A stretch of DNA of 47,695 nt from Psammoneis japonica (GCA_008632985.1 QPGO01000096.1:248001-295695), one strand, 5' to 3'; positions 5,616 to 47,695 are shown, counted from the first letter of the stretch. Numbers and translations: made by a program. Notes: generated by a model from the letters alone, not told the origin.

Positions 5616-5893
5616 GACAAACGAAACAGTAAACGGAGAGAGGCAAGCAGAAGATGAAAAGAGCCAACGCAAACAATGCTGTAATGAATGCGCTTCACTC
5701 TTTCTCTTCATTGCTGAAATTTCAAAAATGTCACGCAGACATTTCAGGCATTCGGACTTTTAGACTTTTTCTGGTGAAAAAAGGAAAAAGAGAAAAAGTT
5801 GGAAAAAGCGAAAAAATCTTTCTTTTTGACAAAATCTTTCTCACAACGACGAGGAACTGGAACGGCACAGGCAATGCTGGATACGTTTTCACC

Positions 5894-7279: not shown

Positions 7280-7399
7280 AAACCATGGGAAACAATCATG
7301 CTTCAGCTAGTGATTCTGAAACACCCTCAACGTCGTGTGGTAAGAGCAACGTCACGCCGACAGCCAAGTGATTCGGGCTCCATCACGCCTTCCATGGTT

Positions 7400-29260: not shown

Positions 29261-29419
29261 CAACGCCCGACATGTTGATGCGGCTGGCATCAAGTGTTGC
29301 ATTTTGACGAGAAAAAAGTGTGATTGAAAGAATGAAAACATTGATGATTGGGTTGTGGGTGCAAGTCACACTCTGTCGCCTGCGCGCAGAAAAAAAGCAC
29401 CGTGAAGAGCGAACGGCGA

Positions 29420-29900: not shown

Positions 29901-30112
29901 GGGCAGGCGCATTTGCATGGTGAGCAGCACAGTCGTGTGTTGCGCATTTGACATTTTACATTGTTGTGCTAAAATGATTGCTGCCGCGCTGGTGCCACAC
30001 AGCAGTGTTTTTGTTGCCACAGGTGGATTGATGGTTCCATGTGTTGTCAGGCAGGGTTCTCATTCATTTCCAACGTCTAAAAACAATGCTGTGATGCCAG
30101 GCCTTTAAAGAG

Positions 30113-30617
30113 AGATTCCCTTTGGGAACGCTCTTGGTGCGGTCCCGGAACGCTTTTGGTGCGGTCCCGGAATGGTGGAAACACGGGAACGACGAAATGC
30201 CCATTTCGTCGAATGGCATTTCCACGTTGGAGCCATTGGCGGTTGTCATAGATGTGATTTAGTGTCAAACAATGCCAGTGGTCACAATGCATCACAGCAG
30301 TTTAACTCACAGCCACTGCAACTCAAAATTGTTGAGACTTCCAACAGCCGTTCTTTTCCTCAGAGAAAATAGAAACCTGTTTTGACGGGTGCACCTTTTT
30401 GCAATAAATCCATCTAATCTGTTAAACTTTTGCACCATTGTGCCACACTCAAACAGTTCCAACAATGGCGCACCAACCACAACGCATCATGTGTCTCATT
30501 GGCGAATTGACCGGCTCCAAAGTTTGATTTCCGCGCGAATTGGTGCACATGAGAACGTTCTCGGAACGGTGTTGGAACGCTTCTGGAACGCTTTTGGAAC
30601 GGTGTGCAAGGGAATCT
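30113..30617. repeat. ~505-bp element bounded by a 10-bp inverted repeat, with subterminal 11/22-bp GGAACG arrays; possible MITE
   Basis: AGATTCCCTT (30113-30122) and AAGGGAATCT (30608-30617). (GGAACGCT(C/T)TTGGTGCGGTCCC)x2 near the left end and four GGAACG units at 11-bp spacing near the right end. Confidence 0.5.
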
Positions 30618-33600
30618 TGAACGACAACAACCCAAAATGGTCTGGCCCTTGGTCCCCCCAAGAGGCCTTTTTTGGTTTTGGCGGTTGGAGCCATTTGGCG
30701 GGATTTGAATTTGAAATCTGCACTGTCGCACGAAAAGCGATGAGGTTGAGACAGTCGTGACTGGTTCAAATCGGAGTTCGGGATCGAGAAGGGAACTCAA
30801 CGGCGTCTCTCTTGCAGTCGCGCCTGCCGTGCAGTGCACTCATGCGTGCAGAAACGCCGTGACAACATCATGTGCTCTCACAGCAACTCCGATGATGCAT
30901 GTGCAGATGTGCAAATGTGAGTGCAGTGGGAAATGAGCTGACAGGCGGGCACCGATAGAAGGTGACGTCAGCATCGATTGTCGCACCGTGTTGTCGTTCA
31001 TTCAGTGCTTGTGATGATGCACCATGCCAACCCAATTGAGTGAGCTGTTTTTCACACACTGCACAACATCATTTTGACATTCTCATTCCAGTGGGTTGTC
31101 TTCTCAACGAGAAATTTTGGCAGGGGTCTGGTGAAGACACAACCACCTGCATTTCTGGGGGCATTTTCTCTCGGCACTTGGTTGGAAAAAAGACAATTGT
31201 TGAGAAGCCTTTCATGGAATTTTGACATTTTGTCAAATCAACCAGAGTCCCAAACACACAGGATTTGTCCTGCAGCCAAATGCCTCGAATGTTGTGTGTC
31301 TGTGGCATGTCCCCTGGCAAAAAGTGCAAGCATCGTTTGAGTGGAAAGTGCACAAACTTTCGCAGCATCGTGCAGACCGTGGCACTCGCATGCAGGCAGG
31401 CAGGTCTCTCTGACATTTCTGTGCGTTTTTGCAGGGAAAAACAAAAATTTTGACATTTCACGCAACTCCCAACGGCTCACATGTCTGATTGACCCGGATG
31501 CCAAATCTTGAGTTTGTTGAAAGCACCGCGACATCATTGCGACGGTTGTCGATCGACCATGGCACCTTTGGTGCAAGTTGCAGAACACAACATCAACATT
31601 GTTCCCGTTTCTTTTTTCATTCTTAAGGACATTTCCACAATCCATCCGACAAGAAGCTTGGTCATGTTTTGTGTCAATGAGAACGTTGTGGATTTGTGGT
31701 GGTTTTGTCAAAGTGCGCCAAAAAATCGATTGTGCGATTCGAGACAGGTTGGCACCATTTCGATTGTCAATGGCGCTTTCACCAATTTTCTCACTGCTTT
31801 TTTGTTTTTCATTTATCTTTGTTTTTTTTCTTCAGAAAATTCAAGGGTGTGGAGTGTTTTTGTGGCAATCTGCAATCTGCAGCACCGCTTTTGGGAAGAA
31901 GAGCAGCGTTGCTGGAGGCACATGTGGTTGGTGCATTGGGGGACAAGGCATCATGTGATGGCAACACCCTGGTGGAAATGCAGGTGGTGCTTGTGACAGA
32001 AAGGCAAACGGCTGTGGGAGGAAGTGACCCACAGGAGGAGGGGGTGAAATCGTTGCAAGCGGGGACATGATCCTGCTGGCTGCAACAGCAGTGTGGCATC
32101 GACTGATTCCTTGGCAGCATGTGCAGGCAAGCTTCCTCCAGCCACACTTTGTCAGCAACTTCTGGTGAGTGGGAGAGAGGGGATGTGCTCTCATTGGTCA
32201 TTCCCACCCTCTCTGGCCTCTCGATTCTGCCACCTTTTTGCCGGCAATGCTTTGCGGATGTGGCAGCTGGAGCAGATTGATGAGAAAACACATGAGGCCC
32301 TGCCTCATTGTGACAAATTGACCCACAAGCTTGCTCTCATCTGACAGAACTTGACAAACAATGCATTGCCTTGGTGGTGTGCCCTGCCGCATCAAGATGA
32401 TTCGTCGCTGTCACTGACAATGAAAAACACAACAAGGCCGCTTGATCAGATTGTCCTGCTGCTTTTTAAAGAGACTGCTGTGGACCATGCCCAGAATGTG
32501 CTCATCTGCCTTTTTTCCACATTTGCCATGGCTGAGGTGCCAGAAACAACTCAACTCACTTGTGGAGTCTGTTCAAACAACATCCCTCCATTCAAAGTTC
32601 CGCTTCGTGGGCCAAAGCATGGGACGTCATTCATGGAACAACAACAATCATGTTGAAAGCATTGACAACACCATGGCTGATGACCCATGTTGTTTTGTGT
32701 TGCAAAGCAGAAACTGAAAATGCTGGCATTTGCATTTCCTTGCTCTTGTCACAAGTGCTGCACACCAAATGACTTGAGTTCAGTGCGGCCGTGTGGGGAG
32801 CCAGACAGATCTTGCCATTGACCAATCATCCGGAGAGCAACAATCCAGCAGAGACATCACTGCAATCGGCATTGCTTGCTGACATGGCAAGCATCTGGCA
32901 GAGCTGAGCAATGTTTGTGACATGAAAGCCAAAATTGTTTGCAATGCAAAAGCTGGAATCCATGCCCCCCCCCCCCCCCCCCCCTGCTCACCTCAAAAGA
33001 AACTCTCTCCACTTCCCATGAGGATTCATGGCAATGCGAGTCCATTCAGCACCTTTCCTGGTGCCGCCATTGCTGCCACGTTTGCTGGCCATGGTGAAAA
33101 CTGCAGCCGCAATTGGCGCTGTCTGATGACTGAGATCTGCTGTGTTTTGTTGGCTTTTTCTCTGTCAAACATTTGGGTGCAGTGGACACATCTCGCATGA
33201 ATGCAACAATGCCGCTTTTCCAGAGATTGGCTGTCCACAAAAGAGAAGTCCATTTGTCATTGCAATTTTTCTGGAGGTCTAGAAAACTGGCAGCATCGCA
33301 ATGTCGTGCAGATCAACCCAAGGTTGCCCTGAGTGATGTCCATTGAGAAAGGTTGTGCAAACATGAACCACCAACTGGCACAAAAAGCTTGCCGATGCCA
33401 GCCGCAAGACAAGTGTCCAGAGCCACAAACATCCTCAGACATTTTCTCAGCACATCAACACAATTTCTTGCTGTTTGACAATGGCTGCTGTGAGAGAATG
33501 ATGCACCACTTTCCCTCTAAAAATGCAAAAAGTTAATTCTTTGCCCAAAACACAATCTCACACCTGCTCCTCTTTGCTGCCCAAAAGCAAGCACTGTGCT

Positions 33601-36067
33601 TGACTCTGCTCTTGTTGTGTGTGATCTGGTGCAGCCTTCTCTGTTTGCAATCCTCCAATGTGCGGAAGTGCTCTTGGCTGCACACGTGCCCTCTCAGCAA
33701 GAAGTTCAGGATTGTCAATGACAGCTGCAATGACATTTTGCTCATCATCCTGGTCACTGGCCAGGTTGGTTGTCCAATGCCAACAAAGCTGCTGCAAAAC
33801 CTGGCTTCTTCTTTTTTCTTTGTCATTTCTGCCTTTAATTTGCAAATGTGAGAGTTGCCAGGCTCCTGGGCAAGGGAGACAAGATGCCTTTCTGATGCAG
33901 AGCTGCACTTTTTTTTTCAGCAGAAAAATTGCCACTCTGCTTTTGCTCCACTCTCTTGTTCTTGCAACACTTTGTTGCAGCTCCTGCTCACACTGTGATC
34001 TGACAGTCACTGCTGCTGCTGCTGCTGTTTCAGTTTGTTGCCAAGCTTTTTTCTCTCACTTTTTTCTCTTGTTGGGGGTGCAAAAAGACCAGGCAATTCT
34101 GTGAAACATCCACATGATTTGATTTGTTTAACTTCAACCAGCACTGGATTGGGCGGATGGCCAACTGGCATGCCCATCAATGACAAGCACTCGGTTTCCA
34201 TCTCTGCACACAACACACAGGTGCAAGCAAGGACAGCCACAACAAGCCACCCAAGCATGGATTTGGAACAAGCTCAACAAGCTGATTTTGAGCATGTTTG
34301 CAAATGGCTCATCTCTCTGACCCCCACATTCTTTGCTTGCCATGGTGCTTCTCCACAATGTTGTTGAAGCACTCGCTCACCACAAGGGCACTGTGGAACC
34401 ATGACAACATAGAAAATGAAATGATTTCGTGAGTGTGTCAACTTTTGCTTTGCAGAGGATGCCAAAATCACTCCAAACAAGAGGCAAAAAGCAACAAGAG
34501 CACAAGAGAATGAAGCACAGCTGCGCACATTCCACTGCACTCCACTGTCAAGGCTCAAACAGGAAAGGCCAAGGCCTTTGCAGCTTCTTTTCAGGTGGGT
34601 CTGCATGGCAAGGATCCAACGTTGAAGTGCTGTCAAGTGATGCTGGGCTGAGACCAGAGTTCAGTGACTTCAATGAATTGCCCAATGACTGCAAAGCTCT
34701 GCCACTCTCTGAAAAGCAAGAATGAGGGCACAATTGAGGAGCGTGCAAATTTTTTGTGCAAGCTGCACGGCTTTTCTTGTGATCAGAGAGTGTGGTTTGA
34801 GGCAGATCACAAGGAGGCAATTGAGGATGCATTGCTGACATGTTGTGCTGGCCTGGAGGAGAAAGCATGTCAGGAAGAAAGCCTTTCTTGCAGATGTCAA
34901 AGGGTGTGACCCAGCTGTTGAGGCTGTGGAGGAGCATGCTGTTGCAGCTCAAGATGGAGTTGCTGTTGAGGACACATGGGTCCAGGAATTTGGCAAAGAT
35001 TGCAGCTCTGCCATGGTTGCCAAAATTTTGAGTTGGCTCAGTTTTTCCCAAGGTTGTTGTTTTGCCAGAGTGCAAACACAAATTTCAAAACATGGGGCAG
35101 TGCTGCATCCATGGAACATTGGAGCATTTCCCTTGCACTTGGCACCCAACTTTGCAAGCTCACCATGAACTTTGGAAAAAATGCACAATTGTGAAAAACA
35201 GAAGGTGCTGCCCCCCCCCCCCCCCCCAAGTGCACCAGCTGTTGATGCAGCTGGCTCTGACCCCATGCCATTGTGAGTGCTTCTTGCTGCTGATCTGCCC
35301 CCAGCAGCAGCTGACAGCTCACATCTGCCTCCAAGCTCAGCCAAAAATGCCTTGGATTTTTTTTCTCAGCACACCCGCCACACACACAAGCTCCTGTTTT
35401 TCTGCAACAGCTGCTGTGAGAGAGTCTTGAACCACTTTTCCTCCAGCCACACATGCACCCTTTTTTCTGCAGTGCCTTTTGTTGGCAGCATTTTTTTTGT
35501 TGAGTTTGGGCTCTTTTTGCTTGTTGTTTTTTGGCACTTGCAACTTGTTCTCTGCCAGAGGTGCTGGCAGGAGGCTGCCAGTGAGGTGCGCACATTGCTG
35601 GCAGCCAGCCATGTGGAGCTGAAGTGAAGGTTGTGCACAGGATCAAAACACAACTGCGAGACCCTGCAGCCATTGTGAGACCAAATGAAGTGCAGCCGCA
35701 AGCGCTGCAGGCCTTTGCCAGCGATTTGCTCAAAAGGAGTGGCTGGCTGCGGTGCTCCCTCTCACATCTTTTGCTTTCTTTCTTGTTTTGTTGCCTTGTC
35801 CATCTGGAATGGCACAGTCAACATTTGGCTGGACATTGTCATGATCTGGCAAGCTGTCATGGCCATTGTCACCCTGCTCAAGACAGAAGGGCCTGAAAAA
35901 GACCCAATTGCTGCTTCTGCGCGGCAGCTGAAACGCGTTAACGGGTCATGACGAGACACACACAATTCCACCAAAAGATATGCCCCTCTGTTTTTTCCGT
36001 TGACTTTCTTCAATGGTCATTCGATCAGAGTCATAAGTCTGATTCAACGGAAGGTGCCAAATAAAGG

Positions 36068-37305
36068 ATGCGGTTGTTGGTCATTGCAATCTCGGTCATC
36101 ATCCTCTCAGCTTTTTATCATCAAGCCCCAATGGTCAGGGCCTCACAAATCCGAAAAGGCCACCGTTCCTTCCCCTTGGCGTCGTTTTGCAGCCTCAGTA
36201 TAGCCAACTGCCACTATGAGGAATGCTTTTACTACCTTCCTGATTGCATCGTTCAATCTTTCCACTGTGACGGCGACGCCGGCTCCGACAATTACGCCTG
36301 CTGAAACGCCGGCTCCAGCGCCTAAGGTGAGTTGAACCGCCAACTCTAAATGCTGATAGAGACGGCAAGCATGGCATGGATTGACCTTTGCTGCTGTTTT
36401 CGGATATACAGGCATCCGCCAGTAGTTGCGATGTTGTCCTGGAGGACTTTTGTTTTAAAACTGACGAGGGTGTGTACCACACAGTTGGCGTTCCTTCTCA
36501 TACACTCAGGCCCCTCAAAGAGCTTAGTACATGTGGAGGTGGCGTTGAAGGAAGATGTGATGACGATGAACTGTGCAGTGAGTTGTGTGGTTATTGCCAT
36601 GACTATGTGGCAGAAAATGGTATGTGCCAGTGTAAGGCCAAACTCTTGAGTCAAGACAAGATTATGAAGAAGGTGTACCAGGACCTTGGTGTGCCAATGA
36701 AAAAGAGCAATCCATGCGGACCAAGGTGGCATGGAGTTACGTGCAATGAAGAAGTGGAGGAAACTGAAGTATTGAAAATTGATTTGAATAGTAAGTGGCC
36801 TATCTGTTAGTGCCACGTGGCTCTACCTCTTAAGTGGAAACTAACACCCACTTGCCAAACTTTGTGAACAGATTTCGGTGCCAAAGACATGATGAAGATT
36901 GATGCGGCCATTCCACCGGAATTGGGCTGCATTGCCACGTTGGAGTATTTAGATTTGGGTGAGTTCATCGAATTTAGGCAGTTGCATTGAGTCCATAAAC
37001 GTGGCAAAGTGAATCTCATCTTTTGATCAAATCTTTCTCTAACTTTCTGATGAAGGCTTCAATAAGCTGAAGGGACCTATTCCTGCAACACTCGGCAAAC
37101 TGGATAACTTGCAGGGTCTTATTTTTCGTAAGTTGGGCTATTCTTCGCCTCTGATTCGGTTTGGCGATTTCTGTATGTTTTCTCACACTCTCCGTCGGTA
37201 ATAATCGTGTTCGTAGACTACAACGCGCTGGAAGGCGTGATCCCGAAAGAGGTATGCCAAAAAACTCCAACTATTGTTGCCGACGAGGCCAACAAATGCG
37301 ACTAG
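36068..37305 (+). CDS. Secreted multi-exon leucine-rich-repeat protein (plant-type LRRs); exact exon structure and stop uncertain
   Basis: Signal peptide, LRRNT-like CGPRWHGVTC, then IPPELGCIATLEYLDL, FNKLKGPIPATLGKLDNLQGL and YNALEGVIPKEVC, separated by GTAAG/GTGAG introns. Confidence 0.7.
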
Positions 37306-37549
37306 AGCCGATTATGACGGACGCGTCAATGACGAATCCCATCTGCAATGTTGTAGCTTAGTAGAGAAGAGTATAATAGCGAAGCGCAAAAGAGAGGGAC
37401 TGGGCAGAGTTCGTGATATGTTAAACTTAGTAGCCCCAAAGGTACCCAGCAAATCTACTATCTAGATCAAATTCATCCCTCACCATTCGTGAGCGAGCAA
37501 AGCTACAGAAGAAATATCCCGAAACGCGTCATTTCATCTGTTCATGGTC

Positions 37550-39096
37550 TCACGAACCCTTGTTTTCCTTTCCTTTCTCTTCCTCTTCTTTACGAGCTTT
37601 CAGAACACGCTGCTGCTCTTCTACTTCTGCAGCTTTGGAGTTTGCGTATTGGTCGTGTTTATGCCATTTCTCCCCGTGTAACTTCTTGTACAAGACAGCC
37701 CTTGCTCCCTTGTCCCAATCGCTGTTGAGCATACCATAAACAAGAGAATCGCTATTACTCTCCTTGATGACTTTATGCTTGGGAATAAGTCCCTCCTGGG
37801 TAAATCCGAGCCGTCCCGGTAGTTTCTTACTCTTGACATCTTGTGAGTCCACAAGGAGCTGTATACGACGATAACCCAACGCAAAGAGACGATCCAACAA
37901 GAGGAAACAAGCTTCCATTTCTTCTGCGGTTCCCGTTGAGGTGGGTTTGCAAATAGGAACTTGCATTTCGATATTCAGATTGCGGGGATCATCTCCTGTC
38001 AACGACATAACACCAATCAGACGATCCGTCATCATTTCGCAAATGGCAAAGGAAGCCATGTTTTCTTGCTTTCGTTCAAAGATTTCGGATGCTGCCATTT
38101 GTTCTGGAGATTCAAAGGGTCCGCAGTCCAGGAAGGCCCAAACTTCATTCGGGTTGTAAGATTTATCTTCCATGTGTGACTGACCACTGGTGATGTCGTA
38201 AAGTGATTGCAAGTGACGAGATTTGTCCAAGAGTTCCAATCGTACCGTCCGTCCAATAATATCTTGGGGACGCTTCGAGTAGTGGTCAGTATACTTCTTT
38301 TCGGTTGCGTGTGTGGCACAGGCCATGCGTTCATACATTCGTGCATAGGACCGACGATAGTTTGTAGTGGTCCAAGATCCGCAACCAGCATATGCCCGAG
38401 CAAAAGCTTCAAATCTGGCTTCTGGCAATCCACCCAGGGGTCCGCCTGTGACATGATCGGACAAGCGTAAGGCAGCGGGTACGGTAAGGTACCACGAGAT
38501 TCACCATTAAGACTTATTCAGCTTTGTGAACATGTACCACTACTTACCCCCCGGTTTATCCTGGCACAGTCGATAGCCTACGATAAAGTTCTCTTCGAAA
38601 TCACTCAATGTTTTCTTGTTGTCTTTCTTGGAAGACTCTTCACTCACCAAGTTCGAAACCGTGGTGGCGTTGGGTTGTTTGTTGAGCAGATTACGTTCCA
38701 ACGTGGTTGTGACCGACCCATCTGTTTTCTCTTCTGTGTAGGATTTCATAAGTCGCTCTCGAGCAAGTAAAAGTCGCTCGAGTAGCAGCGGGCGTTCCGC
38801 ACGAGCTTCAGTAGCGGCAGGTAACGTAGCGGCCCCCGTTCTTGCTTGCTCGGCCATTCGTTCAAACGAGCCTCCTTTGACCAGTAGCACGAGCACAGCC
38901 GAGACTGTACAGGTAAACACAATACACCCAAACAGGATCCCATATCGTTGAGCTGTTGGTAGCTACGGCAATGCAATTTGTTACAACAAACGAGCTATGA
39001 GAAAGGTTCAACACTATCACCAAGCACGAAATTCCAATTCAACAAATCACAAAGTGTAACGTCTTACGTTGGCGAGGCCAAAAGCTTCCAAAACAT
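37550..39096 (-). CDS. GNAT acetyltransferase (RimJ/RimL-like) with N-terminal TM segment; multi-exon, 5' structure approximate
   Basis: LLLDRLFALGYRRIQ...SKKLPGRLGFTQEG...DSLVYGMLNSDW. An upstream exon encodes YGILFGCIVFTCTVSAVLVLLV, with GTAAG donors nearby. Confidence 0.75.
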
Positions 39097-39459
39097 GATC
39101 GACTGATGAAAACGAAGAGGTTAGCTGTGAGAAGGCAAGAGTTAGCTTCTCAAAGTCGGACGGTTCATCAGGGTTCGCCGCCATGGTGTTTGTTGGATGT
39201 GCGGCGGCGAGAAAAAATGAGATCATTTTGTGTCAGTTTGACTGTAAGTGTGAGAAAAAGGTGCTCGAATGAACTTGAAAGGTTGCATGGTTCCTTGTCT
39301 GACTTTCGCGCAAGTCCCGCCTCGCGCGCGATGACATCGCGCGGAATCTTCGATCTTATTCGCGGATCGAGCGTTTTGAGTCACGAACAGCTAAGGCACA
39401 CAGCACACTCAACAAAGAGCGCAAGAGAAACAGAGAAAGACACACCAGCCTCTTCCACC

Positions 39460-40633
39460 ATGAAGAACTTCTTCAACAGCAGCAACAAGGGCAAGGCTCC
39501 GACCTTTAAGAACCCCTTTCAGCCACCAAAGAAGAAATTTGGGGGTGGGGGTCAGAGCTTGGGCGGTACAAAGCCCGGTAAAGTCCTTACAATTATTCTA
39601 TCCAACCCTGGGGCGCTTGGTGTGAAGGTTGAGAAGCGGCCCAACGATAGTACCGCAATTATTGCCATGGTGGTTCCGGGAAGCCAAGCTGAAGAAGCAG
39701 GACTAAAGCGGGGAGATGTCGTGTGTTACACCGAAAGCAATGGGCAGGACGAAATTTCATACGATGACTTTTTGAAATTTGCTGCATCGTCCCAGCGTCC
39801 CATGGTGTTTGATGTAAGGCGCATCGAAACAAAACATTCCAATCCAAACAGCAATAAGAATCAATCTGCTGAATCAGAAGCACGTAAGCGCGCCGTGATT
39901 GCTGCGGCAGAGAAGAGAAACAGAGAGCATAAGGCCAAGTCTAAGCCCATTCCCAAGACGATCAAGAAGAAAGAAACGCCGGCTCCCAGCACGCAGCCAG
40001 CATCGAACGAGCCCATGTCGTTAGAGGCGAAGCAAGCTATCGCAGCAGCAAAAAATCAAGAAGAAGTACTGGCGAACCAGTTGGGATACAATCCGTACGA
40101 GACAAACAAAGCGTCCGCAGGCCAAGTTAGAACTGCAACAGTTGCCATGACGCACGGGAACATTCAATCAAACCCAAACAACTCCACGAGTAATACTGCT
40201 ACTGCTGGTAACATCAGTGAGTACCAAATGTCGCAACGCCATCTTCATTAGCTCAACCAATTGATGATACTGTTCCACCCGTGAGTGATGCCTTTCAAGA
40301 CGCCTTTACCCAACTAGTGACTACCAACAATGATACCAACGGCGTCATGTCGTCGCTGCAAATTATGCAGAAACTCATTGTGAATGCCACAACCAAGGGA
40401 CAAGGATCAGAAGAGAATGCCAAGTTTCGACGTGTCCGTTTAGGTAACGCAAAAATTCAACAAGCAATTACGGATATAAACGGAGCGCTGGAACTCATGC
40501 TCGCGGTGGGATTTCAGCTTTGGAGGAGAGCGGCGAAACCCATTTGGTTTATCCGTTTCCCTCCACTGGACCACTGTGGCTGCCAAGAGCACTCGAGACC
40601 ATGCAACAGTACCAGGAATCACATGAAAAGTAG
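39460..40633 (+). CDS. PDZ + PUB domain protein; apparent frameshifts near 40230 and 40520
   Basis: PDZ: GALGVKVE...VVPGSQAEEAGLKRGDVV. PUB: LQIMQKLIVNA...AKFRRVRLGNAKIQQAITDINGALELMLAVGF. The shifted frame ends ...QQYQESHEK* at 40633. Confidence 0.78.
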
Positions 40634-41066
40634 GTACAGTAGACTGGTTAGATGCGGCTTGTTGTAGGCAGGTAGCACTTTTACGACAATAGAAGAGTGC
40701 CGCATAGAACTATAGAGGCGGAAGTAGCTGCTACTAATGTCATTCCAACCTCTATCTATTCCACTGTCGCAACCGACCTTGATTTATCCGTTCTGCGTGT
40801 TTGTAGTCTTATCCGTTTCCCTCCACTGGACCACTGTGGCTGCCAAGAGCACGCGAGACCATCACACCACAGGTAGATAGACTGACTAGATGCGGCTTGT
40901 TGTACGCAGGTAGCACTTTTAGGACGCAATAGAAGATTGCTGAATAGAACTAGAGAGGCGGAAGTAGCTGCTACTTACTTGGTGGTAGGCATGTCATTCC
41001 GGCTTCTTTGTTCTCTTCCACTGTAACAATCGATCTTGATTTATCCGTTCTGCATGTTTGTATAGT
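40549..41066. repeat. ~260-bp diverged tandem duplication covering the 3' ends of two convergent genes
   Basis: TTATCCGTTTCCCTCCACTGGACCACTGTGGCTGCCAAGAGCAC at 40549 and 40809. GAGGCGGAAGTAGCTGCTACT and ATGTCATTCC...CTTGATTTATCCGTTCTGC occur in both copies. Confidence 0.92.
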
Positions 41067-42898
41067 TCTAGCTCATATCGACTGTGCTCTTCGAGCAAAG
41101 CTAGGAGCTCGGGAGCGGTATTGCGCAGCACGTTTTGGTAGCCCTGGTACCTTTCTTCTGAATCGTCTCGTTGGACAATCACATTCGCCCTTACCTTAGA
41201 CAAGGAAGCAAAAGATTCGGGTACTCTCATAATGTCCGCCACGTAGGCCGCCTGTTCTTGAGTCGAAAAGGTTTCCGAAAGCAACACCACATCGAACGAC
41301 TCCAACACCGACATTGCTCGTTTGAGCGTCGCTTGGCTCAAATGGTGATATGCCCTTGTGCCGCCACCAAACCTACCACCGTATTGGCACGGCCCATGGC
41401 ACCTCTGGCATGTTTGACACTGTTTAAGCTTCTTACGCCGTACACAGTGATGCTGTGCTTCTCTGTAGTCGGGTAGTGCGCTTGTTTCTCCAGTGAGAGC
41501 GCGAAGTTGAAAGTTATCTACAAATTGACCACCGAGAGCACCATTCTCTCTGTGTTTATGCATTCCGTCGTCTATCCATGCCGGTAGTTCCTCTCGAAGA
41601 AAGTTAGCAAATTCCACAGTATACTTTTTTGTTTCGACCCAGTCGTAAATGGTCTTGTTCCTTCCTGGGCCAGAGTAGAAGAATTCAGAAAGATGACGTT
41701 CAATGGGATGACGAACACCAACAACGCTTATTGCGTCATTCCACCGCATATCGATTTGGGGGCAGCGCCAATCCATTGCATAAAACTCCTGTTCATAAAT
41801 TGAAATGTTTTCTTTTGGATGAATCGCCTGATGGTACAGCACAACATTGTCCAGATACTTTCGTATCGAAGTGCCTCCCGCCTTGCGCATGTGCTTGAAG
41901 AATACATACACGTTGCGTTGTTTGTTCCACAATCGTTCATCCCACAAACTAGTGTTTGATGGCTTCAATCGAGAGCTACTATTTTGAGCCTCTTTGAAAA
42001 GCCCTTGACGTGCAGAATTATTCATCAAATCTGGAGCGATTGGAGGCGTGCTATTGGCGGTAGTATCGGAAAGCCGCTGCAAACATGATTCATTGATACC
42101 AAAAAGATCAGCAAGGTACGTTCCTGCCTTTTTATCTCCTAAGTCTAGCTCCACCAATGCATGTGAAGGATGCTTCGAAACAAAGTTGCGTACGCGTTTC
42201 ACTTGGTTGCAGATGAATCCAGCCACATCCTCATGTCTGCTTGAAATGTTGAAGCAACTGGAAACTCGATTGCTCAGTGAATCCCAGTTCTTTACGGCAT
42301 ATCTCCAATCATGAGCGTTCCGAATATCAAGAAGAAACGTGGCATTCGGATGCTCATTATGAATTTGCTCCAAGAACTGAATCTGAGGCCAAACGCACAA
42401 TCCTTTTGTTGGATGCGTTATCTCAACCTGGAGGTATGCGCCGTAGTTGCCGCATGATCCAAGTGGACCGTCGCCACGTGCAACGGCATCACGTATACAA
42501 ACACCGCACCACCTCGATCCTTTTTCAGAAGACGAATCAAAGCACGTGTGATGGCTTACGTTGAAGCGGTTGCCGCATTTGAAGAGATCTGCGATAGTAG
42601 ATGCGGCAGACGTACTAGGAAATCCAAGATTCACAATAGGAGTGGGGAGTGGTAGCAAGACAGTCCCTCCGTCTGAGTCTCTTGGTGTAAAGCATGACAA
42701 CGTGCTTGGGATATCGCTTTTTGCGCTCGAGGAATCAACGAGAGTTGCGTTGTGAGAAACATCTTCAGAGAACCAATGAGTGATGGTTGCCATAGATTTT
42801 CGTCCATCATCTTTTAGAGCAAACAGTGTGAGTATGACGTACACTACGACGGAGTAGATTGCCACGCAGCTTGCCATCCATTGATGTGTGCGACGCAT
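40994..42898 (-). CDS. Type-II membrane sulfotransferase-family protein with two sulfotransferase-like modules
   Basis: N-terminal TM helix. The C-terminal module has 5'-PSB FFKHMRKAGGTS and 3'-PB RHPIERHLS. The N-terminal module has a degenerate PIVNLGFPSTSAAST loop. Confidence 0.75.
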   Translation of the reverse strand: MRRTHQWMASCVAIYSVVVYVILTLFALKDDGRKSMATITHWFSEDVSHNATLVDSSSAKSDIPSTLSCFTPRDSDGGTVLLPLPTPIVNLGFPSTSAASTIADLFKCGNRFNVSHHTCFDSSSEKGSRWCGVCIRDAVARGDGPLGSCGNYGAYLQVEITHPTKGLCVWPQIQFLEQIHNEHPNATFLLDIRNAHDWRYAVKNWDSLSNRVSSCFNISSRHEDVAGFICNQVKRVRNFVSKHPSHALVELDLGDKKAGTYLADLFGINESCLQRLSDTTANSTPPIAPDLMNNSARQGLFKEAQNSSSRLKPSNTSLWDERLWNKQRNVYVFFKHMRKAGGTSIRKYLDNVVLYHQAIHPKENISIYEQEFYAMDWRCPQIDMRWNDAISVVGVRHPIERHLSEFFYSGPGRNKTIYDWVETKKYTVEFANFLREELPAWIDDGMHKHRENGALGGQFVDNFQLRALTGETSALPDYREAQHHCVRRKKLKQCQTCQRCHGPCQYGGRFGGGTRAYHHLSQATLKRAMSVLESFDVVLLSETFSTQEQAAYVADIMRVPESFASLSKVRANVIVQRDDSEERYQGYQNVLRNTAPELLALLEEHSRYELELYKHAERINQDRLLQWKRTKKPE

Positions 42899-43160
42899 GT
42901 TTGGAGAATAAGTCCTAGCTAGTAAGGTGTATTGACTTTAGCCATCTTGATGAAACTGTGTGGGGTGGGATGCACCCGCCGCGCATCCCGTGGTTCGCGC
43001 TATTGCCTCCTTCTTGCTGAGAGAACAAATTACTCACAGTCCTCCGTCACAACTAGAAGTAATGAAAAGACATAAAGGGAAAGCGTTCTCCGCCTGAAAG
43101 CAACTAGTTTACCTCAGCGTAGATCTATGAAGTTCCATGCAAAATTACTAAAACTAGAAA

Positions 43161-45047
43161 CTAGAGTCGTAACTTCGACAGTCTAGGGCAACGTCGGTTC
43201 AGCATCCCCACATCGTCTTTCGAAACGAAGTAACAACCACCCAAATCTAACTCAGACAGCGTACCAGCAGAAGGGCTACTGCCCAGGGCATTCAAGATGC
43301 TTTTCCCAAACTGCTCCACAACTCTAGATGGTGCCAAAGCTTCGTCGGCCTCCTTTTGAGTTCGATTGGGAAAGCATCTCCACAGGGACAAACGTCGCAA
43401 CCCCCCATCACTGCTCGTCATGCCGTGCTTGGCGAGTGTCAACGTTAATGTATCCATTGCATTCGTGTCCGTGCCAACAAATCCCATGCATCCACCCAAG
43501 TCCAAATCAACAAGGCTTGGAGAAGAGGCAACAAGCCGAGCAACGCCTTTGCATGTAATGCTCGTGTGTCCAGAAAGATTTACACACCGGAGAGCTAGCT
43601 TTTCTCTCAGCAATTCTTCCATACTTTCGTCAGTCAATCGATGAGATCTGCCAAAGACATTGGCGCAAGAGAGGTCGAGCGTCTGCAACCCAAAAACATC
43701 AATATACGAAAGAAGAGTTCGTAACAAAGCGTTGGACCATGACTCTCCTCCGCCACTCATTCTTAAACTCGTCAGCCGTAATGAAGACTTCTCACTGCTG
43801 CTCACTCCCAATGACAATGCTTGACATAGTTCAGACGCAGTGACCCCCGTGTGAGAAATGTCGAGACTTGATAGTCGCCCACACGAAGAAGGAATGGAGC
43901 CGCCTCGAGATGGCGATGCCGGTGGAATATCAAAGAGAGATTGCAAAGAAGCCAGAGCTTGGTGAGGCTGCTGCGAACACTTCCAGAGCTTTTTCAACGG
44001 TAGCATGCTCGTTATTTTAGTATTTCCTCGAAGACTCAAAACTTGCAGACGAGGGCAGTGAATCGCGACGAATTCCACAGCCAGGTTGGTCAGTAGCGGG
44101 CATTGTTCTAGAGCCAAGTGAGTCAATTTTGAGGAGGGTCGCCCGTGCCGACGGGACGACTTGCTTTGGAAGTTTGGCAGCACTAGAGAGGCCGTGAGCA
44201 TTGCGTGAACATGTGCATCAGTTAGGGATGCATAACCGGTTAACTTCAGCTGGCACAGGTTCGTCATGCTCGAAAGTGACGGAAGACATACATCAGGTAG
44301 CAAGCGGTATTGGATATCTGAAAGCGTCAGAGACTCGATTGTTGCTTCGTGTCGAGCCAGATGCTTGGCAATAAAGTGGCTTGTTTCTTCAGGAGACGCG
44401 GTTGATGAGGTGAGGAATTCGGTAGCATCCACTTGTTTCCAAGAATGTGTGTGATTTGAACAATAGCGCCATCGACGACAAACTTGAGAGCACTGTAGCA
44501 GTTCGTTCAAGTTTAGGTGAGAGAAGATCAGTAGCATCACCTCGTCATGGACATGCGAGAATAAGGAATTACAATGGAGATTCCAGAGACCTCGGACCCT
44601 TCGAGGAGTACAACGAAAACCTGAGGCTTTGGTTCTGATGCATGGCTTTCGAAGAACAGGAGAAAGAGTGACTCCTCTATTAGATATTGAGAAGGACGTG
44701 GAGGAAGGAGTGACTTTTGCAGAGTCAGTAGACTGGTGATTCCGGTTTTCTACCACTGCGCTTTTCTTGCGTGATCCACCCGTATTCGTATTTACCCCGT
44801 CGATTTGATCTCGTGGAGTTAGAATGCCATTACTTTTTTGACACCCCGAGGAGAAAGGCAGTGAAAATGTGGAGTTGCTCGAAGACCCAGCGGAATTCTT
44901 GGGAGGTACTTCAAACGTAAGAGCTGTCTGAGAAACGCAAGATGGACTGGGAGGTGGATGGGTCGACACCGAAACGGGGTTCGCTACGAATTCGGTGCGC
45001 GTATTTTCATCAGAACAGCAGCGACTTGAATGACAAGATATCGTCAT
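43161..45047 (-). CDS. F-box/LRR protein
   Basis: F-box HVHDEVMLLIFSHLNLNELLQCSQVCRRW, followed by cysteine-containing LRRs (LTHLALEQCPLLTN, CPRLQVLSLRG, LVDLDLGGC). Confidence 0.9.
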   Translation of the reverse strand: MTISCHSSRCCSDENTRTEFVANPVSVSTHPPPSPSCVSQTALTFEVPPKNSAGSSSNSTFSLPFSSGCQKSNGILTPRDQIDGVNTNTGGSRKKSAVVENRNHQSTDSAKVTPSSTSFSISNRGVTLSPVLRKPCIRTKASGFRCTPRRVRGLWNLHCNSLFSHVHDEVMLLIFSHLNLNELLQCSQVCRRWRYCSNHTHSWKQVDATEFLTSSTASPEETSHFIAKHLARHEATIESLTLSDIQYRLLPDVCLPSLSSMTNLCQLKLTGYASLTDAHVHAMLTASLVLPNFQSKSSRRHGRPSSKLTHLALEQCPLLTNLAVEFVAIHCPRLQVLSLRGNTKITSMLPLKKLWKCSQQPHQALASLQSLFDIPPASPSRGGSIPSSCGRLSSLDISHTGVTASELCQALSLGVSSSEKSSLRLTSLRMSGGGESWSNALLRTLLSYIDVFGLQTLDLSCANVFGRSHRLTDESMEELLREKLALRCVNLSGHTSITCKGVARLVASSPSLVDLDLGGCMGFVGTDTNAMDTLTLTLAKHGMTSSDGGLRRLSLWRCFPNRTQKEADEALAPSRVVEQFGKSILNALGSSPSAGTLSELDLGGCYFVSKDDVGMLNRRCPRLSKLRL

Positions 45048-45289
45048 ATAATCAGCGACAGCAGTGGTTTCGGATTGCGTTATCGATATCGGCCGATATG
45101 AAGAATGAAAGAGGTGTTCTTTGTTTTCCAGACTGTGGCAGCTTCATGCATGTGAACGGGGTGCGGATTTCTGTTTTCTGCACACGTGGTGAGAAATAAA
45201 GTGTCAAGTGTCAGGCAGGATTGCGGACGGGACGTCTGCAAGCATAGGATGTGTCAGTCAGCGTCACGACAATCCGTTCAGATAACGGT

Positions 45290-47695
45290 CGCTTGGTTTT
45301 CCTCCTCCAGCCTTCTCTGTCCGCCGCTGCTTCTTTCGTCATCAGCTCCCTCTCTCTCCGTGGATGATCATCATTCCAACACGACTGTCAACCGTTTCTG
45401 TGAAATCCAGTTGGAGTGCTGAAAGAAAGTGGGTTTCGTGGTGGGAAAGACAACATGTCTTTTGTTTTGAATGACAACTCCATGGCAGCCACCCACTCAA
45501 AACATCTGCATGTGTTTCTGCATGAGCTCTCGCACAGATGTCGCCCTTTTCAGATGGCATGTTGCTGGCTCTCTCAAGACCATTCTGGCCATTGGCATCA
45601 ATGGTGTGCCCTTGTTTCAGCATGTTAAACAATGTCACCAAGTGGAAAATGACTGGCGTCAACTCCTTGTTGGTCGCATGCTCGTTGATTTTTTTTGTCA
45701 TTTTCTGCAGATCCAAGAAATTTTCTGCATGGATCCCAGTGCAAATTCCATGCACTTCAAACACCACCAATGAATGCCTTGTCACATCTCGGAGCTTCTT
45801 GTGCCCACACCTGTCTGTCCTCAACATGACCCTCTTTGTTCCTGTCAGCCAGCCAAGTCCTTCACTCTGTGGGGTGAAAGCGCCGCTTCAGCTGCGGCGC
45901 CGACAAGCATGAGTGTGAGCCCTTCTTCAGCATCAATTGATTGTTCTCCATTTGCTGTGTGCATCAGCATTTCCATGCAAGATCCAGCACAAATTCTGCG
46001 TGCTTCAGCAAACACCGCCGATGAGTGCTTTGTCACGTCTCCCCGAGCTTCTTGTGCCCTTGCCTGTCTGTCCTCAATGACCCTCTTTGTTCCTGTCAGC
46101 CAATCAAGTCCTTCACTCTGTGGGGTGAAAGCACTGCTTCAGTTGCAGCACCAATGAACATGAGCATGAGCTTTTCTTTGGCATCAATTGGCTGTTCTCC
46201 ATTTGCTGTGCGTGTCGACACTCCTGCGCAAGATCCGGCATGGTTTCTGCATGTGGAAAATGTTGTTCCCGGTGACCAACCCATCACATCATCAAGTGCT
46301 CCTGTTTCCAATCTCCCAGTCATGGACAACCCCTCCCTCCCTTTCTGGCAAACCAAGCTTCTGGCTGCATGCAGCGATCTTTCCATCTTTGTCACATTTC
46401 TTGGAGGTTGGAACAAAGCTCCCTTCTCAATGAGCGAAGCCAGCGGTTTGAAAAAACCATTTTTTGACTTGCTTCCCTTTGCTGTTCCCAAACCCAAACC
46501 TGTGGGCAATTGTTCTTTGCCATGCTGGTGTGGCAGATGCGTCTCCAGCCCAAGTGAAAGCAATGAGCTCCCCAATGTGTTGCTTCATCACCCCCATCCA
46601 TCTCAGGCATGTGTCCTTTTTGGAGGGCACTGCAACAAGCCAATTGCGACAACTTCTGCCACACCCCTTGCAGGGTGTGCTGGAAGTGTTTGACAGCCAG
46701 TGCTGGTGTTGCTGGGCAAAGGCGCAACAGCACTTAAAATTGGGACCGAGTTTTTGTTTTGTTTTGAATGGAGGAAACAGGAAAAAGGGGAAACATCACC
46801 CACAACAAAAACACAACAAGCAACAGAAAAAAAGAAAGGGGCCAGCGCCCTCGCTGGTGTTGCAAACAGCTCCAGACAATCTGGCTGCACCTTTTCATGC
46901 TGGTAACCAGTGCTGCTTGGTGATCTTTTGCCACATTTCATGCAGCACCAGCACCAGTCATGCCTTGTCAACAAGAGCTCCAGCACCAGATCAAGGCTGG
47001 CGCACAAGTGCAAAATTTTGTCAACTTGTTTGTCAAAAGCACGTTCCAGCACATTCATCACAAAAGCTGGAGCCAACACTTTGAGTGCCTTGTGCACAAT
47101 CCAGGAGAGCCATTGTCTCAGTCAACCATGTGAGAGACTAAAGTGCTGAGCAAATGCATGCCTGACATGACAAAACAGAGTGCAAAGGTCAGAAAAATTT
47201 TTTTTTCTGCCCCGCCTTTTCTGGCAAAAAAGACAAGAACACCATCAGAGCTGCAGCAATGTTTTGGTCTGTGGATGCCACCACATCTCTTTTTCTTTTT
47301 AGCACAAGTGTGATGCAGGCTTGTGGTGGCTTCAGCAACTTTCAAGTGTGCGCATGAAAGTTTTTTTGTGCTCTCATCTCTCTCAGCCTGTTTCACCTGC
47401 CCTCTCTGCTCTGCCGAGCTGTTTTCAATGACACACAAATGTGCCATCAAATTCAGCACATCTGGGTCAGCTCACATGGCCACATCTGCATTTCACAAAA
47501 ATGATCTGTTTTGGTGGTTTCGTGCATTGACTGCCTTTCTTCAGTGCACACAAAAAGATGTGTGCAAGAAATGATGAGCATCCTCTCTTGAGAACACACA
47601 GCAGGTGCACTTTTTTTGCAAGAGAGCTGGGGCATGCTCATCACATCACGTGCGGCACTTCACACCACTGACACACTGGAGCCAGAGACGCAGCT
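45290..47695. mobile_element. Second TpA-depleted decayed island, running off the window end; contains unidentified minus-strand coding relics
   Basis: Only 5 TA in ~2.4 kb (hand count), TG/CA excess and Tyr-free ORFs. Confidence 0.7.
45770..46253. repeat. 251-bp tandem duplication inside the second island
   Basis: ATGACCCTCTTTGTTCCTGTCAGCCA..CAAGTCCTTCACTCTGTGGGGTGAAAGC and TGTTCTCCATTTGCTGTG are repeated at a 251-bp offset (units start at 45770 and 46021). Confidence 0.92.

Follow-up and report, generated by a model that had tools for sequence, protein, structure and literature searches.

Repeat-like islands in the nuclear genome of the diatom Psammoneis japonica have probably undergone a targeted, flank-dependent hypermutation that changed TpA to TpG or CpA, and we infer an adenine deaminase serving genome defence as the agent. 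The fingerprint of these islands is of the kind expected from a sequence-specific DNA-editing enzyme. The DNA analysed is one window, that is, the whole stretch of 47,695 nt in GCA_008632985.1 QPGO01000096.1:248001-295695. Positions 1-28000 and 36100-45200 of the window, with 1524 TA, served as the ordinary-DNA background.

Extent and composition of the islands

Two islands were delimited, neither assigned to a strand. Island A consists of a left part (28401..31000, from 200-bp bins), which is TA-poor with CpG still near normal, and a core (31001..35930), which has almost no TA or CpG left and about 1.8 times the expected TG/CA. Island B (45290..47695) has the composition of the island A core and continues past the end of the window. 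The boundaries lie at about 28.4, 35.93 and 45.29 kb, each resolved within one or two 200-bp bins. The core ends sharply, directly before the next gene, and the left edge of island B is also sharp. On the left of island A, the mutated sequence is sharply bounded because the adjoining TA-rich patch (28001..28400, again without strand) is undepleted, with 10 RTAY against 5.1 expected and 25 CG against 22.5; it contains ATATATA and GTAC. The first-pass annotation had the block begin at 30.96 kb. This start has to be moved, since the DNA is TA-poor from about 28.4 kb and it is CpG that stays near normal until about 31.0 kb.

The islands hold 1-4 TA per kb, compared with about 65 expected from base composition, and the neighboring genes are without TA loss. 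None of the 1533 control windows of 500 bp, drawn from diatom-like loci and the window background, had a TA observed/expected ratio below 0.2, the minimum being 0.22. The ratios in the island A core are 0.03 for TA, 0.28 for CG and 1.76 for CA/TG, and over the island parts they range from 0.03 to 0.16 for TA and from 1.55 to 1.76 for CA/TG. Other dinucleotides shift less (0.74-1.37 versus 0.89-1.15 in the background), the largest values being those of GC/GC (1.37) and AA/TT (1.33-1.36). Among the dinucleotides that contain A, TA alone collapses, AA is raised, and AT, GA and CA show no collapse, which places a T directly 5' of the lost A.

Surviving TA sites

The TA sites that survive in the islands are strongly biased in their flanks. 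Fourteen of them, nine in 30961-35930 and five in 45290-47695, had been listed in the first-pass annotation, which read them as YTAR spared and RTAY absent. The list is exact (TTAA seven times, CTAA twice, and CTAG, TTAG, TTAT, ATAG and GTAA once each), and the reading holds, with 11 YTAR, one YTAY, two RTAR and no RTAY. The five sites in the 2.4 kb of island B are TTAA (twice), GTAA, CTAA and TTAG. YTAR makes up 16.1% of the background TA sites, YTAY and RTAR together 52.6%, and RTAY 31.2%; against these fractions, 11/14 YTAR gives p=4e-7 (binomial) and 0/14 RTAY gives p=0.005.

The same flank pattern was found in 28401-30960, which lies outside the earlier sample and thus replicates it: the 27 TA there are 15 YTAR, six YTAY, five RTAR and one RTAY (YTAR excess, p=3e-6; RTAY deficit, p=5e-4). 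In total, the islands of this one window (9.9 kb; 9,936 bp) retain 41 TA against 408 expected, namely 26 YTAR, 14 half-sites and one RTAY (p=1e-11 for YTAR and 4e-6 for RTAY against the background). Equal depletion of all NTAN contexts, which had been set beforehand as the contrary outcome, was not seen in this enlarged 41-site sample. Survival instead followed the predicted order RTAY << YTAY = RTAR < YTAR, with observed/expected values of 1/127.5, 14/214.8 and 26/65.9. The same two all-island tests gave p=2e-7 and 1e-4 against equal classes of 25%, 1e-10 and 4e-6 against diatom-like metagenome DNA (363.5 kb, 18,991 TA), and 1e-9 and 3e-4 against window DNA outside ORFs of at least 150 aa (529 TA). 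Five of the 41 sites lie in copies of one tandem unit; when these copies were counted once, 24 of 38 sites were YTAR (p at most 5e-9).

Conversion of TA and the target motif

The data support the view that TA in the islands was converted to TG/CA rather than being merely absent. The number of YR steps per kb in the four flank classes is similar in the islands (58/60/53/68) and in the background (66/57/56/64), and losses of TAC and TAT are balanced by gains of TGC and TGT; in the CpG-intact part, TAC falls by 21.7 per kb and TGC rises by 26.2 per kb. As judged indirectly, from composition and paralogues, the changes appear to be A>G / T>C transitions limited to TpA, giving TpG or CpA. Both strands are affected alike (TGY versus RCA 327:312, 148:138 and 150:140), and no strand clustering of changes was detected (runs z -1.4 to +0.4); an ADAR-type change of one strand was rejected on these grounds.

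The surviving sites alone do not separate a TAY target from a far-flank reading, but the polarity of the TG/CA excess does. With the strands pooled, the core has a YTGY:RTGR ratio of 1.66 (median 1.68 and interval 1.46-1.94 in a block bootstrap), compared with 1.13 in the window background and 1.04 in diatom-like DNA (363 kb); the ratio of 1.33 in the left part is weak alone, with a bootstrap interval of 1.04-1.65 versus 1.05-1.23 for the background. The gains predicted by a near-flank model fitted best (squared error 52 and 81), those of a model without polarity worse (316 and 120) and those of a far-flank model worst (868 and 353). The polarity indicates that the mutated base pair adjoins the favourable flank, so that the target would be a contiguous 5'-TAY-3' (RTA on the other strand). 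This favours the substrate that had been proposed from the first 14 sites.

At the +1 position of the survivors the bases are A43, G23, C8 and T8, and the loss parameter rho is 2.32 for C, 2.34 for T, 0.85 for G and 0.15 for A. The +2 bases are A42, C19, T15 and G6 versus 23.8/20.2/18.9/19.1 expected from island composition (p=3e-5), and G at +2 favours loss in this small sample (6/82 survivor flanks versus 19.1 expected). TACG is found 0 times against 56.8 expected, TAGG 0 against 28.9 and TAAA 24 against 58.7; TAAA survives best (0.41, versus 0.10 for TAAG). Insofar as the loss depends on +1 and +2, is sharply confined to blocks and is absent from neighboring genes, these results support the earlier view that an enzyme with sequence preference, not drift, was at work.

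The observed composition, flank dependence, polarity, look-alike copies and TA-bearing paralogues are probably best explained by the following course. The islands would be copies, some old and some younger, of repeated DNA resembling transposons. In them, a targeted process turns TpA into TpG or CpA (A:T to G:C transitions) and probably strikes the two strands at fine scale and independently of each other. Its rate would be set by the bases 3' of the adenine, fastest at T-A-C/T, intermediate at T-A-G and slowest at T-A-A (notably TAAA), and would be raised further by G at +2. A TA would be lost fast when either strand reads TAY; RTAY offers two good targets, YTAY and RTAR one and YTAR none, so that YTAR nearly alone remains. 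A TadA/ADAT2-like polynucleotide adenine deaminase is the candidate agent; working on DNA, it would convert A to hypoxanthine, read as G, and it may serve in genome defence by being targeted to repeats or silenced chromatin. A scan of 20 window ORFs found no deaminase.

In nature, TadA acts on hairpin loops of RNA. It prefers U(-1)A(0)C(+1)G(+2) (PMC10586758), the motif of bacterial mRNA editing is TACG/YTACGAA, and TadA editing of hokB is abolished by +1 C>T (PMC12255301). The islands share with TadA the T/U before the target adenine, the fastest loss with Y at +1 and the favoured G at +2. On the other hand, TadA requires C at +1, whereas T equals C in the islands (rho 2.34 versus 2.32), and a strict requirement for C therefore does not hold. 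The island profile seems to work like a relaxed TadA motif, not a strict one. The parallel with TadA drawn in the first-pass annotation thus stays suggestive: the G at +2, as in U-A-C-G, speaks for it, and the equivalence of T and C at +1 against it. For TadA8e a minimal YA preference is reported (PMC10586758). According to another source, E. coli TadA caused no rise in the E. coli mutation rate, and amphioxus ADAT2 edits DNA at GAA (adenine) and TCG, not TA (PMC10354150).

The only precedent that we found for TpA hypermutation comes from mutation-accumulation lines of Bigelowiella natans, in which integrated viral DNA, of NCLDV and virophages, undergoes de novo TpA -> TpG/CpA hypermutation (Mettrop et al., bioRxiv 10.64898/2026.01.13.699255, 2026). 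The same preprint reports that TpA-depleted coding sequences are enriched for transposase and reverse-transcriptase domains, and proposes an ADAT2 homologue, an adenine deaminase, as the agent. Shared with our islands are A:T to G:C changes at TpA only and on either strand, discrete blocks, and low TpA with high CpA+TpG. However, B. natans is a rhizarian alga and P. japonica a diatom (stramenopile), the process was measured de novo there and is deduced from composition and paralogues here, and the depletion is far more complete here (TA observed/expected 0.03 versus 0.45 in the B. natans NCLDV region). The main text of the preprint gives no flank context, and the dependence on TAY and +2 G, the polarity and the CpG decay are absent from it; its supplementary mutation list may hold flank data. 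No viral gene was seen in our islands.

The same pattern could be left by a thymine-directed enzyme, through TET/JBP oxidation of T in 5'-R-T-A to 5-hydroxymethyluracil or base J and a subsequent change to C by mispairing or faulty repair. The polarity fixes the base pair only, in which the A of TAY faces the T of the opposite RTA; an A-directed enzyme on TAY and a T-directed enzyme on RTA would therefore look alike in sequence. Enrichment at T before A is known for 5-hydroxymethyluracil in dinoflagellates and for base J in kinetoplastids. We nevertheless regard this route as unlikely, because the B. natans precedent and the biochemistry of A-to-I deaminases give a direct way from A to G, whereas 5-hydroxymethyluracil pairs mainly with A. 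To our knowledge, no modification of the 5-hydroxymethyluracil or base J type occurs in diatoms.

Rate of loss and decay of CpG

The survival of TA was described by a two-parameter Poisson model in which each strand is struck independently; all rate estimates assume that the original NTAN make-up of the islands was that of the ordinary DNA in the window. The fit (rho_R=0.46, rho_Y=2.31) predicts 26.3/6.9/6.6/1.3 YTAR/YTAY/RTAR/RTAY against 26/7/7/1 observed. Loss is about 5 times faster for the A of T-A-Y than for that of T-A-R, and about 30 times faster in the least-worn part. A uniform loss rate was rejected (likelihood ratio p=2e-13). Squaring the half-site survival gives 0.0042, and multiplying the survival of the two extreme classes gives 0.0031; this near agreement fits independent action on the two strands.

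A gradient runs along island A. In 28401-30628, RTAY is reduced to 1 versus 28.6 expected and half-sites to 10 versus 48.2, with YTAR at expectation (15 versus 14.8) and CG at 103 versus 125. In the most-worn part, 33257-35930, all classes are low (RTAY 0 versus 34.3, half-sites 1 versus 57.8, YTAR 5 versus 17.7, CG 23 versus 150.5).

These counts bear on the idea that the surviving TA were regrown after a flank-blind wipe-out, by ordinary or TpC-specific C-to-T change (TCA->TTA, TGA->TAA). Such regrowth would account for the T before or A after TA in 32/41 sites, compared with 38.5% in the background, and for the observed/expected values of TC/GA (0.92-0.93 in the islands versus 1.12) and AA/TT (1.33-1.36 versus 1.15). 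It is nonetheless quite improbable. The least-worn part, with its full complement of YTAR and its single RTAY, matches the prediction of sparing, not that of wipe-out and regrowth. CTAG cannot be made by this route, yet it is retained in three of four tandem units at 28560..29300 and so is ancestral there. In addition, TCA/TGA are not depleted (44.1 versus 36.8 per kb), and the independent polarity of TG/CA would be left unexplained.

CpG decay is decoupled from TA loss, since 28.4-31.0 kb is TA-poor with a CG observed/expected ratio of 0.80, compared with 0.28 in the core. The surviving CG in the four flank classes (24/31/25/37) are proportional to the background (587/483/460/558), without bias. 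The loss of CpG is a second, slower process without flank bias, most simply explained by deamination of 5-methylcytosine. The decay of 5-methylcytosine in methylated transposons shares with the older island parts the change of CG to TG/CA at any flank; it accounts for the CpG half of the island pattern only.

Repeats, paralogues and element structure

A 19.7-kb stretch of the window is matched by 1104 contigs from the source run at a likeness of at least 80%, and the matches are concentrated on the islands. Summed word depth is 320-3400 over 28401..31000 versus 58 over genes, indicating many look-alike contigs, and 670-1600 over 45.1-47.05 kb in island B. It is about 700 over the undepleted patch 28001-28400, where look-alike contigs are also present; repetition is therefore not sufficient for mutation. 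Transitions predominate among the differences between contigs and window (A>G 146, T>C 139, C>T 197, G>A 151, versus 13-33 for each transversion type). Among 34 differences checked (the first 40 of 844 minus the first six, at 28080-28232), other copies had TA where the window has CA/TG in six, and the reverse was seen in one.

Repeat-induced point mutation (RIP) of Neurospora and other fungi is likewise a dinucleotide-context hypermutation of repeats that leaves sharply bounded, compositionally odd, non-coding transposon relics. Its chemistry involves a cytosine methyltransferase-like enzyme that acts before meiosis, to which nothing in the islands points. Its direction is opposite: RIP enriches TpA through C-to-T change of CpA, whereas TpA is destroyed and TpG/CpA gained here. 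RIP is triggered by duplication, but the repeated patch at 28001-28400 is untouched. RIP was rejected because TpA is nearly absent and CpA/TpG are raised. No comparable island was found in the 363.5 kb of diatom-like metagenome DNA, in which repeats assemble poorly, and the hypermutation process may be specific to this lineage.

Two sets of tandem copies lie on the plus strand. Five units of about 130-178 bp were aligned at 28560..29300, inside the TA-poor part, and TA, TG, CA and CG alternate at the same YR columns. A 251-bp unit is duplicated at 45758..46260, inside island B, and its copies mismatch at 49 positions; 43 of these mismatches are transitions and 13 set CG against TG/CA, and at seven columns one copy has CA where the other has TG.

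Hyper-editing of retroelement transcripts from A to I by ADAR-like or ADAT-like enzymes, followed by reverse transcription and re-insertion, would be consistent with the preference of such enzymes for U before the edited A (bioRxiv 10.64898/2026.01.13.699255). The repeats may also be transcribed: second-run contigs span 29.3-30.6 kb, and one that skips 38445-38546 looks spliced. We consider this origin very unlikely, because the two strands are equally affected with changes finely interleaved, whereas editing of one strand predicts TG without CA. The tandem units of a single locus, moreover, differ at TA/TG/CA columns, and the element has inverted terminal repeats with no reverse-transcriptase signal (none of 87 island ORFs exceeded any Pfam cut-off).

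It is just as improbable that no mutation process was involved, the islands being foreign or functional DNA selected against TA and CG, or an artefact of assembly or of base calling at modified bases. Some long-read platforms make systematic base-calling errors at modified motifs, and the sole run containing the stretch may be the window's own assembly source; but the TA-free sequence is recovered, with 4 deviating letters in 33351-35227 and 5 in 46748-47695, by contigs built from exact 31-letter words (depth about 58-65). In addition, further copies from that run have TA at positions of TG/CA in the window, YR-step totals are conserved, the graded series of RTAY, half-sites and YTAR is the prediction of a rate process and not of a composition rule, and no coding signal is left for selection.

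A pair of 39-nt inverted repeats, 90% complementary, also detected by blastn and without assigned strand, has its left arm at 28000..28038 and its right arm at 31432..31470. The pair may represent the ends of a DNA element of about 3.5 kb. By eye, the two arms differ from each other at CG versus CA/TG steps.

Composition of the TA-poor islands

Dinucleotide counts per kilobase and in 200-bp bins revealed two TA-poor blocks, one from about 28.4 to 35.93 kb and the other running from 45.29 kb off the end of the window. Where the first block ends on the right and the second begins on the left, the transition spans one or two 200-bp bins. Within these islands TA falls to 0-4 per kb, where about 65 are expected from base composition, and TG plus CA are about 1.6-1.8 times as frequent as expected. 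CpG is depleted only from about 31.0 kb on; between 28.4 and 31.0 kb, where TA is already scarce, CpG still reaches 0.80 of the expected level. GC-biased gene conversion was rejected, since GC content is the same in the islands (0.48-0.50) and TA alone is lost.

As controls, 1533 windows of 500 bp were drawn from the remaining DNA of the window and from 363.5 kb of diatom-like metagenome sequence, 46 loci found with a TTL-aminotransferase alignment and used as control only. TA observed/expected was below 0.2 in none of these windows (minimum 0.22), and hence in none from the other diatoms represented by the 46 loci. TGCA is enriched about threefold in 28401-35930 and 45290-47695 (28-32 per kb against 9.3, strand-pooled), as expected if GTAC, TACA/TGTA and TATA drained into TGCA; GC/GC steps are up to 1.37 in the same intervals.

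Flanking context of the surviving TA sites

The first-pass annotation had claimed that, in 30961-35930 and 45290-47695, TA is spared in the YTAR context and absent in RTAY, implying a preferred substrate of 5'-TAY-3'. Its site list was exact: the 14 sites comprise 11 YTAR (TTAA seven times, CTAA twice, CTAG and TTAG), one TTAT, one ATAG, one GTAA and no RTAY. Ordinary DNA of the window (1-28000 and 36100-45200; 1524 TA) shows the opposite trend, with 16% YTAR, 53% half-sites (YTAY and RTAR) and 31% RTAY. Against this background YTAR is in excess (p=4e-7) and RTAY is lacking (p=0.005) among the 14 sites. The interval 28401-30960, on which the claim had not drawn, serves as an independent replicate; its 27 TA are 15 YTAR, 11 half-sites and one RTAY (p=3e-6 for the YTAR excess, p=5e-4 for the lack of RTAY). 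All island DNA together (9,936 bp) retains 41 TA against 408 expected, namely 26 YTAR, 14 half-sites and one RTAY; these flank statistics come from one window only and assume that the islands were ancestrally like ordinary DNA in composition. The class bias holds under a null of equal class frequencies, against the 18,991 TA of the diatom-like loci, against window DNA with the long ORFs excluded, so that avoidance of TAR as stop codons plays no part, and when the copies of one tandem unit are counted once (YTAR 24/38).

The classes were fitted with a model in which the strands are hit independently and the adenine rate in 5'-T-A-N is set by N, so that survival equals exp(-(rho[N3]+rho[complement of N1])). 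A two-rate Poisson fit gave rho_R=0.46 and rho_Y=2.31. It predicted 26.3 YTAR, 6.9 YTAY, 6.6 RTAR and 1.3 RTAY, where 26, 7, 7 and 1 were observed, and was better than a uniform rate (p=2e-13). The order foreseen at first pass, RTAY << YTAY = RTAR < YTAR, was recovered, and the effects multiply as for two independent strands. With four rates the fit gave TAA 0.15 < TAG 0.85 < TAC 2.32 ~ TAT 2.34.

Polarity of the products

Under a near-flank rule the changing base is the A with Y after it or, equivalently, the T with R before it. This rule predicts that YTAY becomes YTGY and RTAR becomes RCAR, and a far-flank rule predicts the reverse; survivors cannot separate the two, but products can. In the island core the strand-pooled YTGY:RTGR ratio was 526:317 = 1.66 (block bootstrap median 1.68, interval 1.46-1.94). 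It was 1.33 (1.04-1.65) in the CpG-intact part, 1.13 in ordinary DNA of the window and 1.04 in the diatom-like loci. Gains were predicted from how many TA and CG sites each class had lost, with CpG products divided evenly. For RTGY, YTGY, RTGR and YTGR, respectively, the near-flank rule predicts core gains of +21.6, +30.3, +13.3 and +14.0 per kb, and +24.6, +31.6, +7.6 and +11.3 were observed. The squared error in the core was 52 for the near-flank rule, 316 for no polarity and 868 for the far-flank rule, and the ranking was equal in the left part of the island (81, 120 and 353). Since the near-flank model fits the products best, the motif is contiguous 5'-T-A-Y-3' (5'-R-T-A-3' on the partner strand), as first proposed. 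The first-pass observation is confirmed, and the reading placed on it is supported and made more precise. Totals of YR steps per kb by flank class are near-equal in islands and background, which supports the premise that TA and CG steps were converted rather than absent from the start.

A T-directed enzyme acting on RTA would leave the same sequence as an A-directed enzyme acting on TAY, and the two are indistinguishable on these data.

Progressive loss and the wider flank

In 28401-30628, RTAY numbers 1 against 28.6 expected and half-sites 10 against 48.2, while YTAR is untouched (15 against 14.8). Regrowth of TA via TpC-type C>T change was considered as an alternative; against it, YTAR in this interval stands at expectation while RTAY is nearly gone. 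In 33257-35930 there are 0 RTAY against 34.3 expected, 1 half-site against 57.8, 5 YTAR against 17.7 and 23 CpG against 150.5. Because YTAR is untouched in the former interval but reduced in the latter, it is lost too, roughly as fast as CpG decays, a rate one to two orders of magnitude below that of RTAY.

With both strands pooled, the base 3' of the A in survivors (+1) is A in 43 cases, G in 23, C in 8 and T in 8. The +2 base is A in 42, C in 19, T in 15 and G in 6, where the dinucleotide transitions of the island itself predict 23.8, 20.2, 18.9 and 19.1 (p=3e-5). Four-letter survival was 0.41 for TAAA, 0.26 for TAGA, 0.20 for TAAC and TAAT, 0.14 for TAGC and 0.10 for TAAG, and at most 0.06 for every TAC and TAT word; TACG (0 against 56.8 expected), TAGG (0 against 28.9) and TATA (0 against 35.9) are gone. 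From this +1/+2 profile, therefore, the spared site is more exactly a TA where a pyrimidine tract meets an A-tract, rather than just YTAR. G at +2 raises the vulnerability of a TA site.

Repeats, strand balance and CpG loss

One sequencing run, and no RNA library, was listed as containing the stretch; 1104 contigs of that run (at least 80% likeness) were placed on 19.7 kb. Summed word depth was 320-3400 at 28-33 kb, 670-1600 at 45.1-47.05 kb and 57-58 over genes; it does not equal copy number and was taken only as a sign of many look-alike sequences (repeats), the source run being possibly not independent of the assembly. For another run, X2, the reading was confined to bins with cover. Where these contigs differ from the window, transitions prevail (A>G 146, T>C 139, C>T 197, G>A 151), each transversion type numbering 13-33. 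Of 844 difference rows, 40 were listed, and 34 of these were checked, all but the first six, at 28080-28232. In six of the 34, other copies carry TA where the window has CA or TG (GTAC twice, ATAC, GTAG, CTAT and CTAG), and one shows the reverse change. Five tandem units at 28560-29300 interchange TA, TG, CA and CG at shared columns, with CTAG retained in three of four units. The two 251-bp units at 45758-46260 have 49 differences, 43 of them transitions and 13 of them CG against TG/CA; their seven columns with CA in one copy and TG in the other are of mixed flank classes and too few for a polarity test.

The TGY:RCA counts are balanced (327:312, 148:138 and 150:140) and interleaved (runs z -1.4 to +0.4, like background), and the runs test found no strand-coordinated clusters of TGY or RCA in the islands. 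Both strands are therefore hit, without long single-strand tracts.

A pair of 39-nt inverted repeats (28000-28038 and 31432-31470) together with short tandem 22-mers suggests DNA-transposon-like elements. The 22-nt repeat has no match in IMG/VR; the sole match there to the 19-nt inverted-repeat end (L047) has no wider similarity and an ordinary composition and was set aside as chance. The patch at 28001-28400 is repeated, TA-rich and untouched; it is either a later arrival, or else repetition by itself does not trigger the process. At 28180-28240, 200 bp from the TA-free block, the repeated sequence is extremely AT- and TA-rich (ATATATA, TATTATATAT), either by later insertion or by shielding from the process.

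An inverted motif of about 10 nt was seen by eye at 30106-30625 (near 30113 and 30610). Together with tandem 22-mers and 11-mers at 30125-30172 and 30553-30605 it flanks the stretch of peak summed contig depth, which may be a MITE-like element with TTTAAA at its left flank. One contig of the source run (X1; word depth 892) connects 28143 to 29439 with 39 other letters between them, and therefore an element variant lacking the tandem-unit array is present at high depth in that run. An X2 contig over 37439-38962 omits 38445-38546 (102 nt), like a spliced transcript, and X2 may therefore be an RNA library despite its label 'DNA?'. X2 contigs also cover 29315-30628 in the TA-poor repeats, a hint that the repeat family is transcribed.

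Surviving CG by flank class numbers 24/31/25/37 in the islands against 587/483/460/558 in background, without flank-class bias in the islands, and CpG loss is spatially decoupled from TA loss. We infer that it probably reflects ordinary 5-methylcytosine decay. A single deaminase for both T-A and T-C-G is unsupported, as CG survival is 19-44% over ACG, TCG, CCG and GCG and TCG is not distinct.

Possible mechanism and relation to known systems

The best-supported explanation of the sequence pattern is that repeat DNA is subject to targeted hypermutation from A:T to G:C, with T-A-Y(G) as the preferred context. The agent would be a polynucleotide adenine deaminase working on DNA, and its target would be repeats or silenced chromatin. 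Other explanations weighed were editing of RNA with subsequent retrotransposition, selection or foreign composition, and artefact. To our knowledge, no adenine deaminase that acts mainly on DNA is established in nature. Such an enzyme, if real, would be of interest to genome-defence biology and genome engineering, because the adenine base editors were obtained only by evolving TadA.

The literature search for TpA hypermutation, in diatoms or elsewhere, returned one close precedent, a 2026 preprint on Bigelowiella natans; one search gave, besides it, only papers on RIP and cancer. According to that preprint, two integrated viral regions gained 231 new mutations, of which 230 were A>G or T>C, all 230 at TpA; long-term clusters are TpA-poor and rich in CpA and TpG, and the candidate enzyme is an ADAT2 homologue (bioRxiv 10.64898/2026.01.13.699255). 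Its main text makes no mention of context, trinucleotide, tetranucleotide, flanking, CpG, diatom or stramenopile. The phenomenon described here is a diatom instance of a kind described once. The diatom signature is near-complete and would extend chlorarachniophyte TpA hypermutation to a second major algal lineage and to transposon-like repeats. In the literature searched, the flank rule, the polarity and the law of strand independence were not found in print. They provide a fingerprint for the direct test of candidate enzymes: loss at TAY exceeds that at TAG and then TAA, G at +2 helps, the strands are independent, and the changed pair adjoins the favourable flank.

TadA favours U(-1)A(0)C(+1)G(+2) (PMC10586758), bacterial mRNA editing requires TACG/YTACGAA (PMC12255301) and DNA editing by amphioxus ADAT2 occurs at GAA and TCG (PMC10354150). 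On these accounts the island profile has in common with TadA a T at -1, a pyrimidine at +1 and a G at +2, yet it tolerates T at +1, which TadA does not; it differs from amphioxus ADAT2 in targeting TA. Fungal RIP is a functional analogue, although its chemical direction is opposite. A wider reading, which we put forward tentatively and consider rather unlikely, is that diatoms carry a RIP-like genome defence run by a natural DNA adenine deaminase descended from TadA/ADAT2 with a relaxed U-A-C-G preference (T-A-Y, G at +2), directed at repeats and acting on both strands. The same system would then lie behind the Bigelowiella hypermutation and would be an ancient defence of the SAR supergroup, the natural counterpart of laboratory adenine base editors.

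Coding content and other features of the window

A Pfam scan of 20 of the 51 stop-to-stop ORFs of at least 150 aa (15 gene-sized and five island ORFs) found the eukaryotic domains DIRP, tubulin-tyrosine ligase, actin, F-box, sulfatase and MatE. The top relatives of the tubulin-tyrosine-ligase ORF are raphid pennate and other diatoms (45-59% identity), in which it is fused to a class-V aminotransferase. These domains and relatives indicate that the window is diatom nuclear DNA.

None of 87 island ORFs of at least 70 aa passed the curated Pfam cut-off (scan at E<=0.1), and a protein search with the ORF at 46452-47081 gave 75 candidates, none at E<=0.001. In the islands within 28401-47695, TAA and TAG are lost and TGA is the sole remaining stop. 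ORFs of 100-260 aa occur in all six frames; they are rich in Cys, His and Gln and matched no family. In diatom genomes, TA-free, CG-free blocks with long false ORFs will lead gene callers and repeat finders astray.

Two poly-C runs lie on the same strand of the core island about 2.2 kb apart, at 32955-32974 (20 nt) and 35211-35227 (17 nt). Contig placement skipped the repeats at 32956-32996; a contig piece stops, and its successor starts, at 35211-35227. At 5633-8736 (+), a class-V aminotransferase ORF lies downstream of the tubulin-tyrosine-ligase ORF. Most of the relatives listed have both as a single fused protein of about 850-950 aa, and the fusion is apparently diatom-wide.
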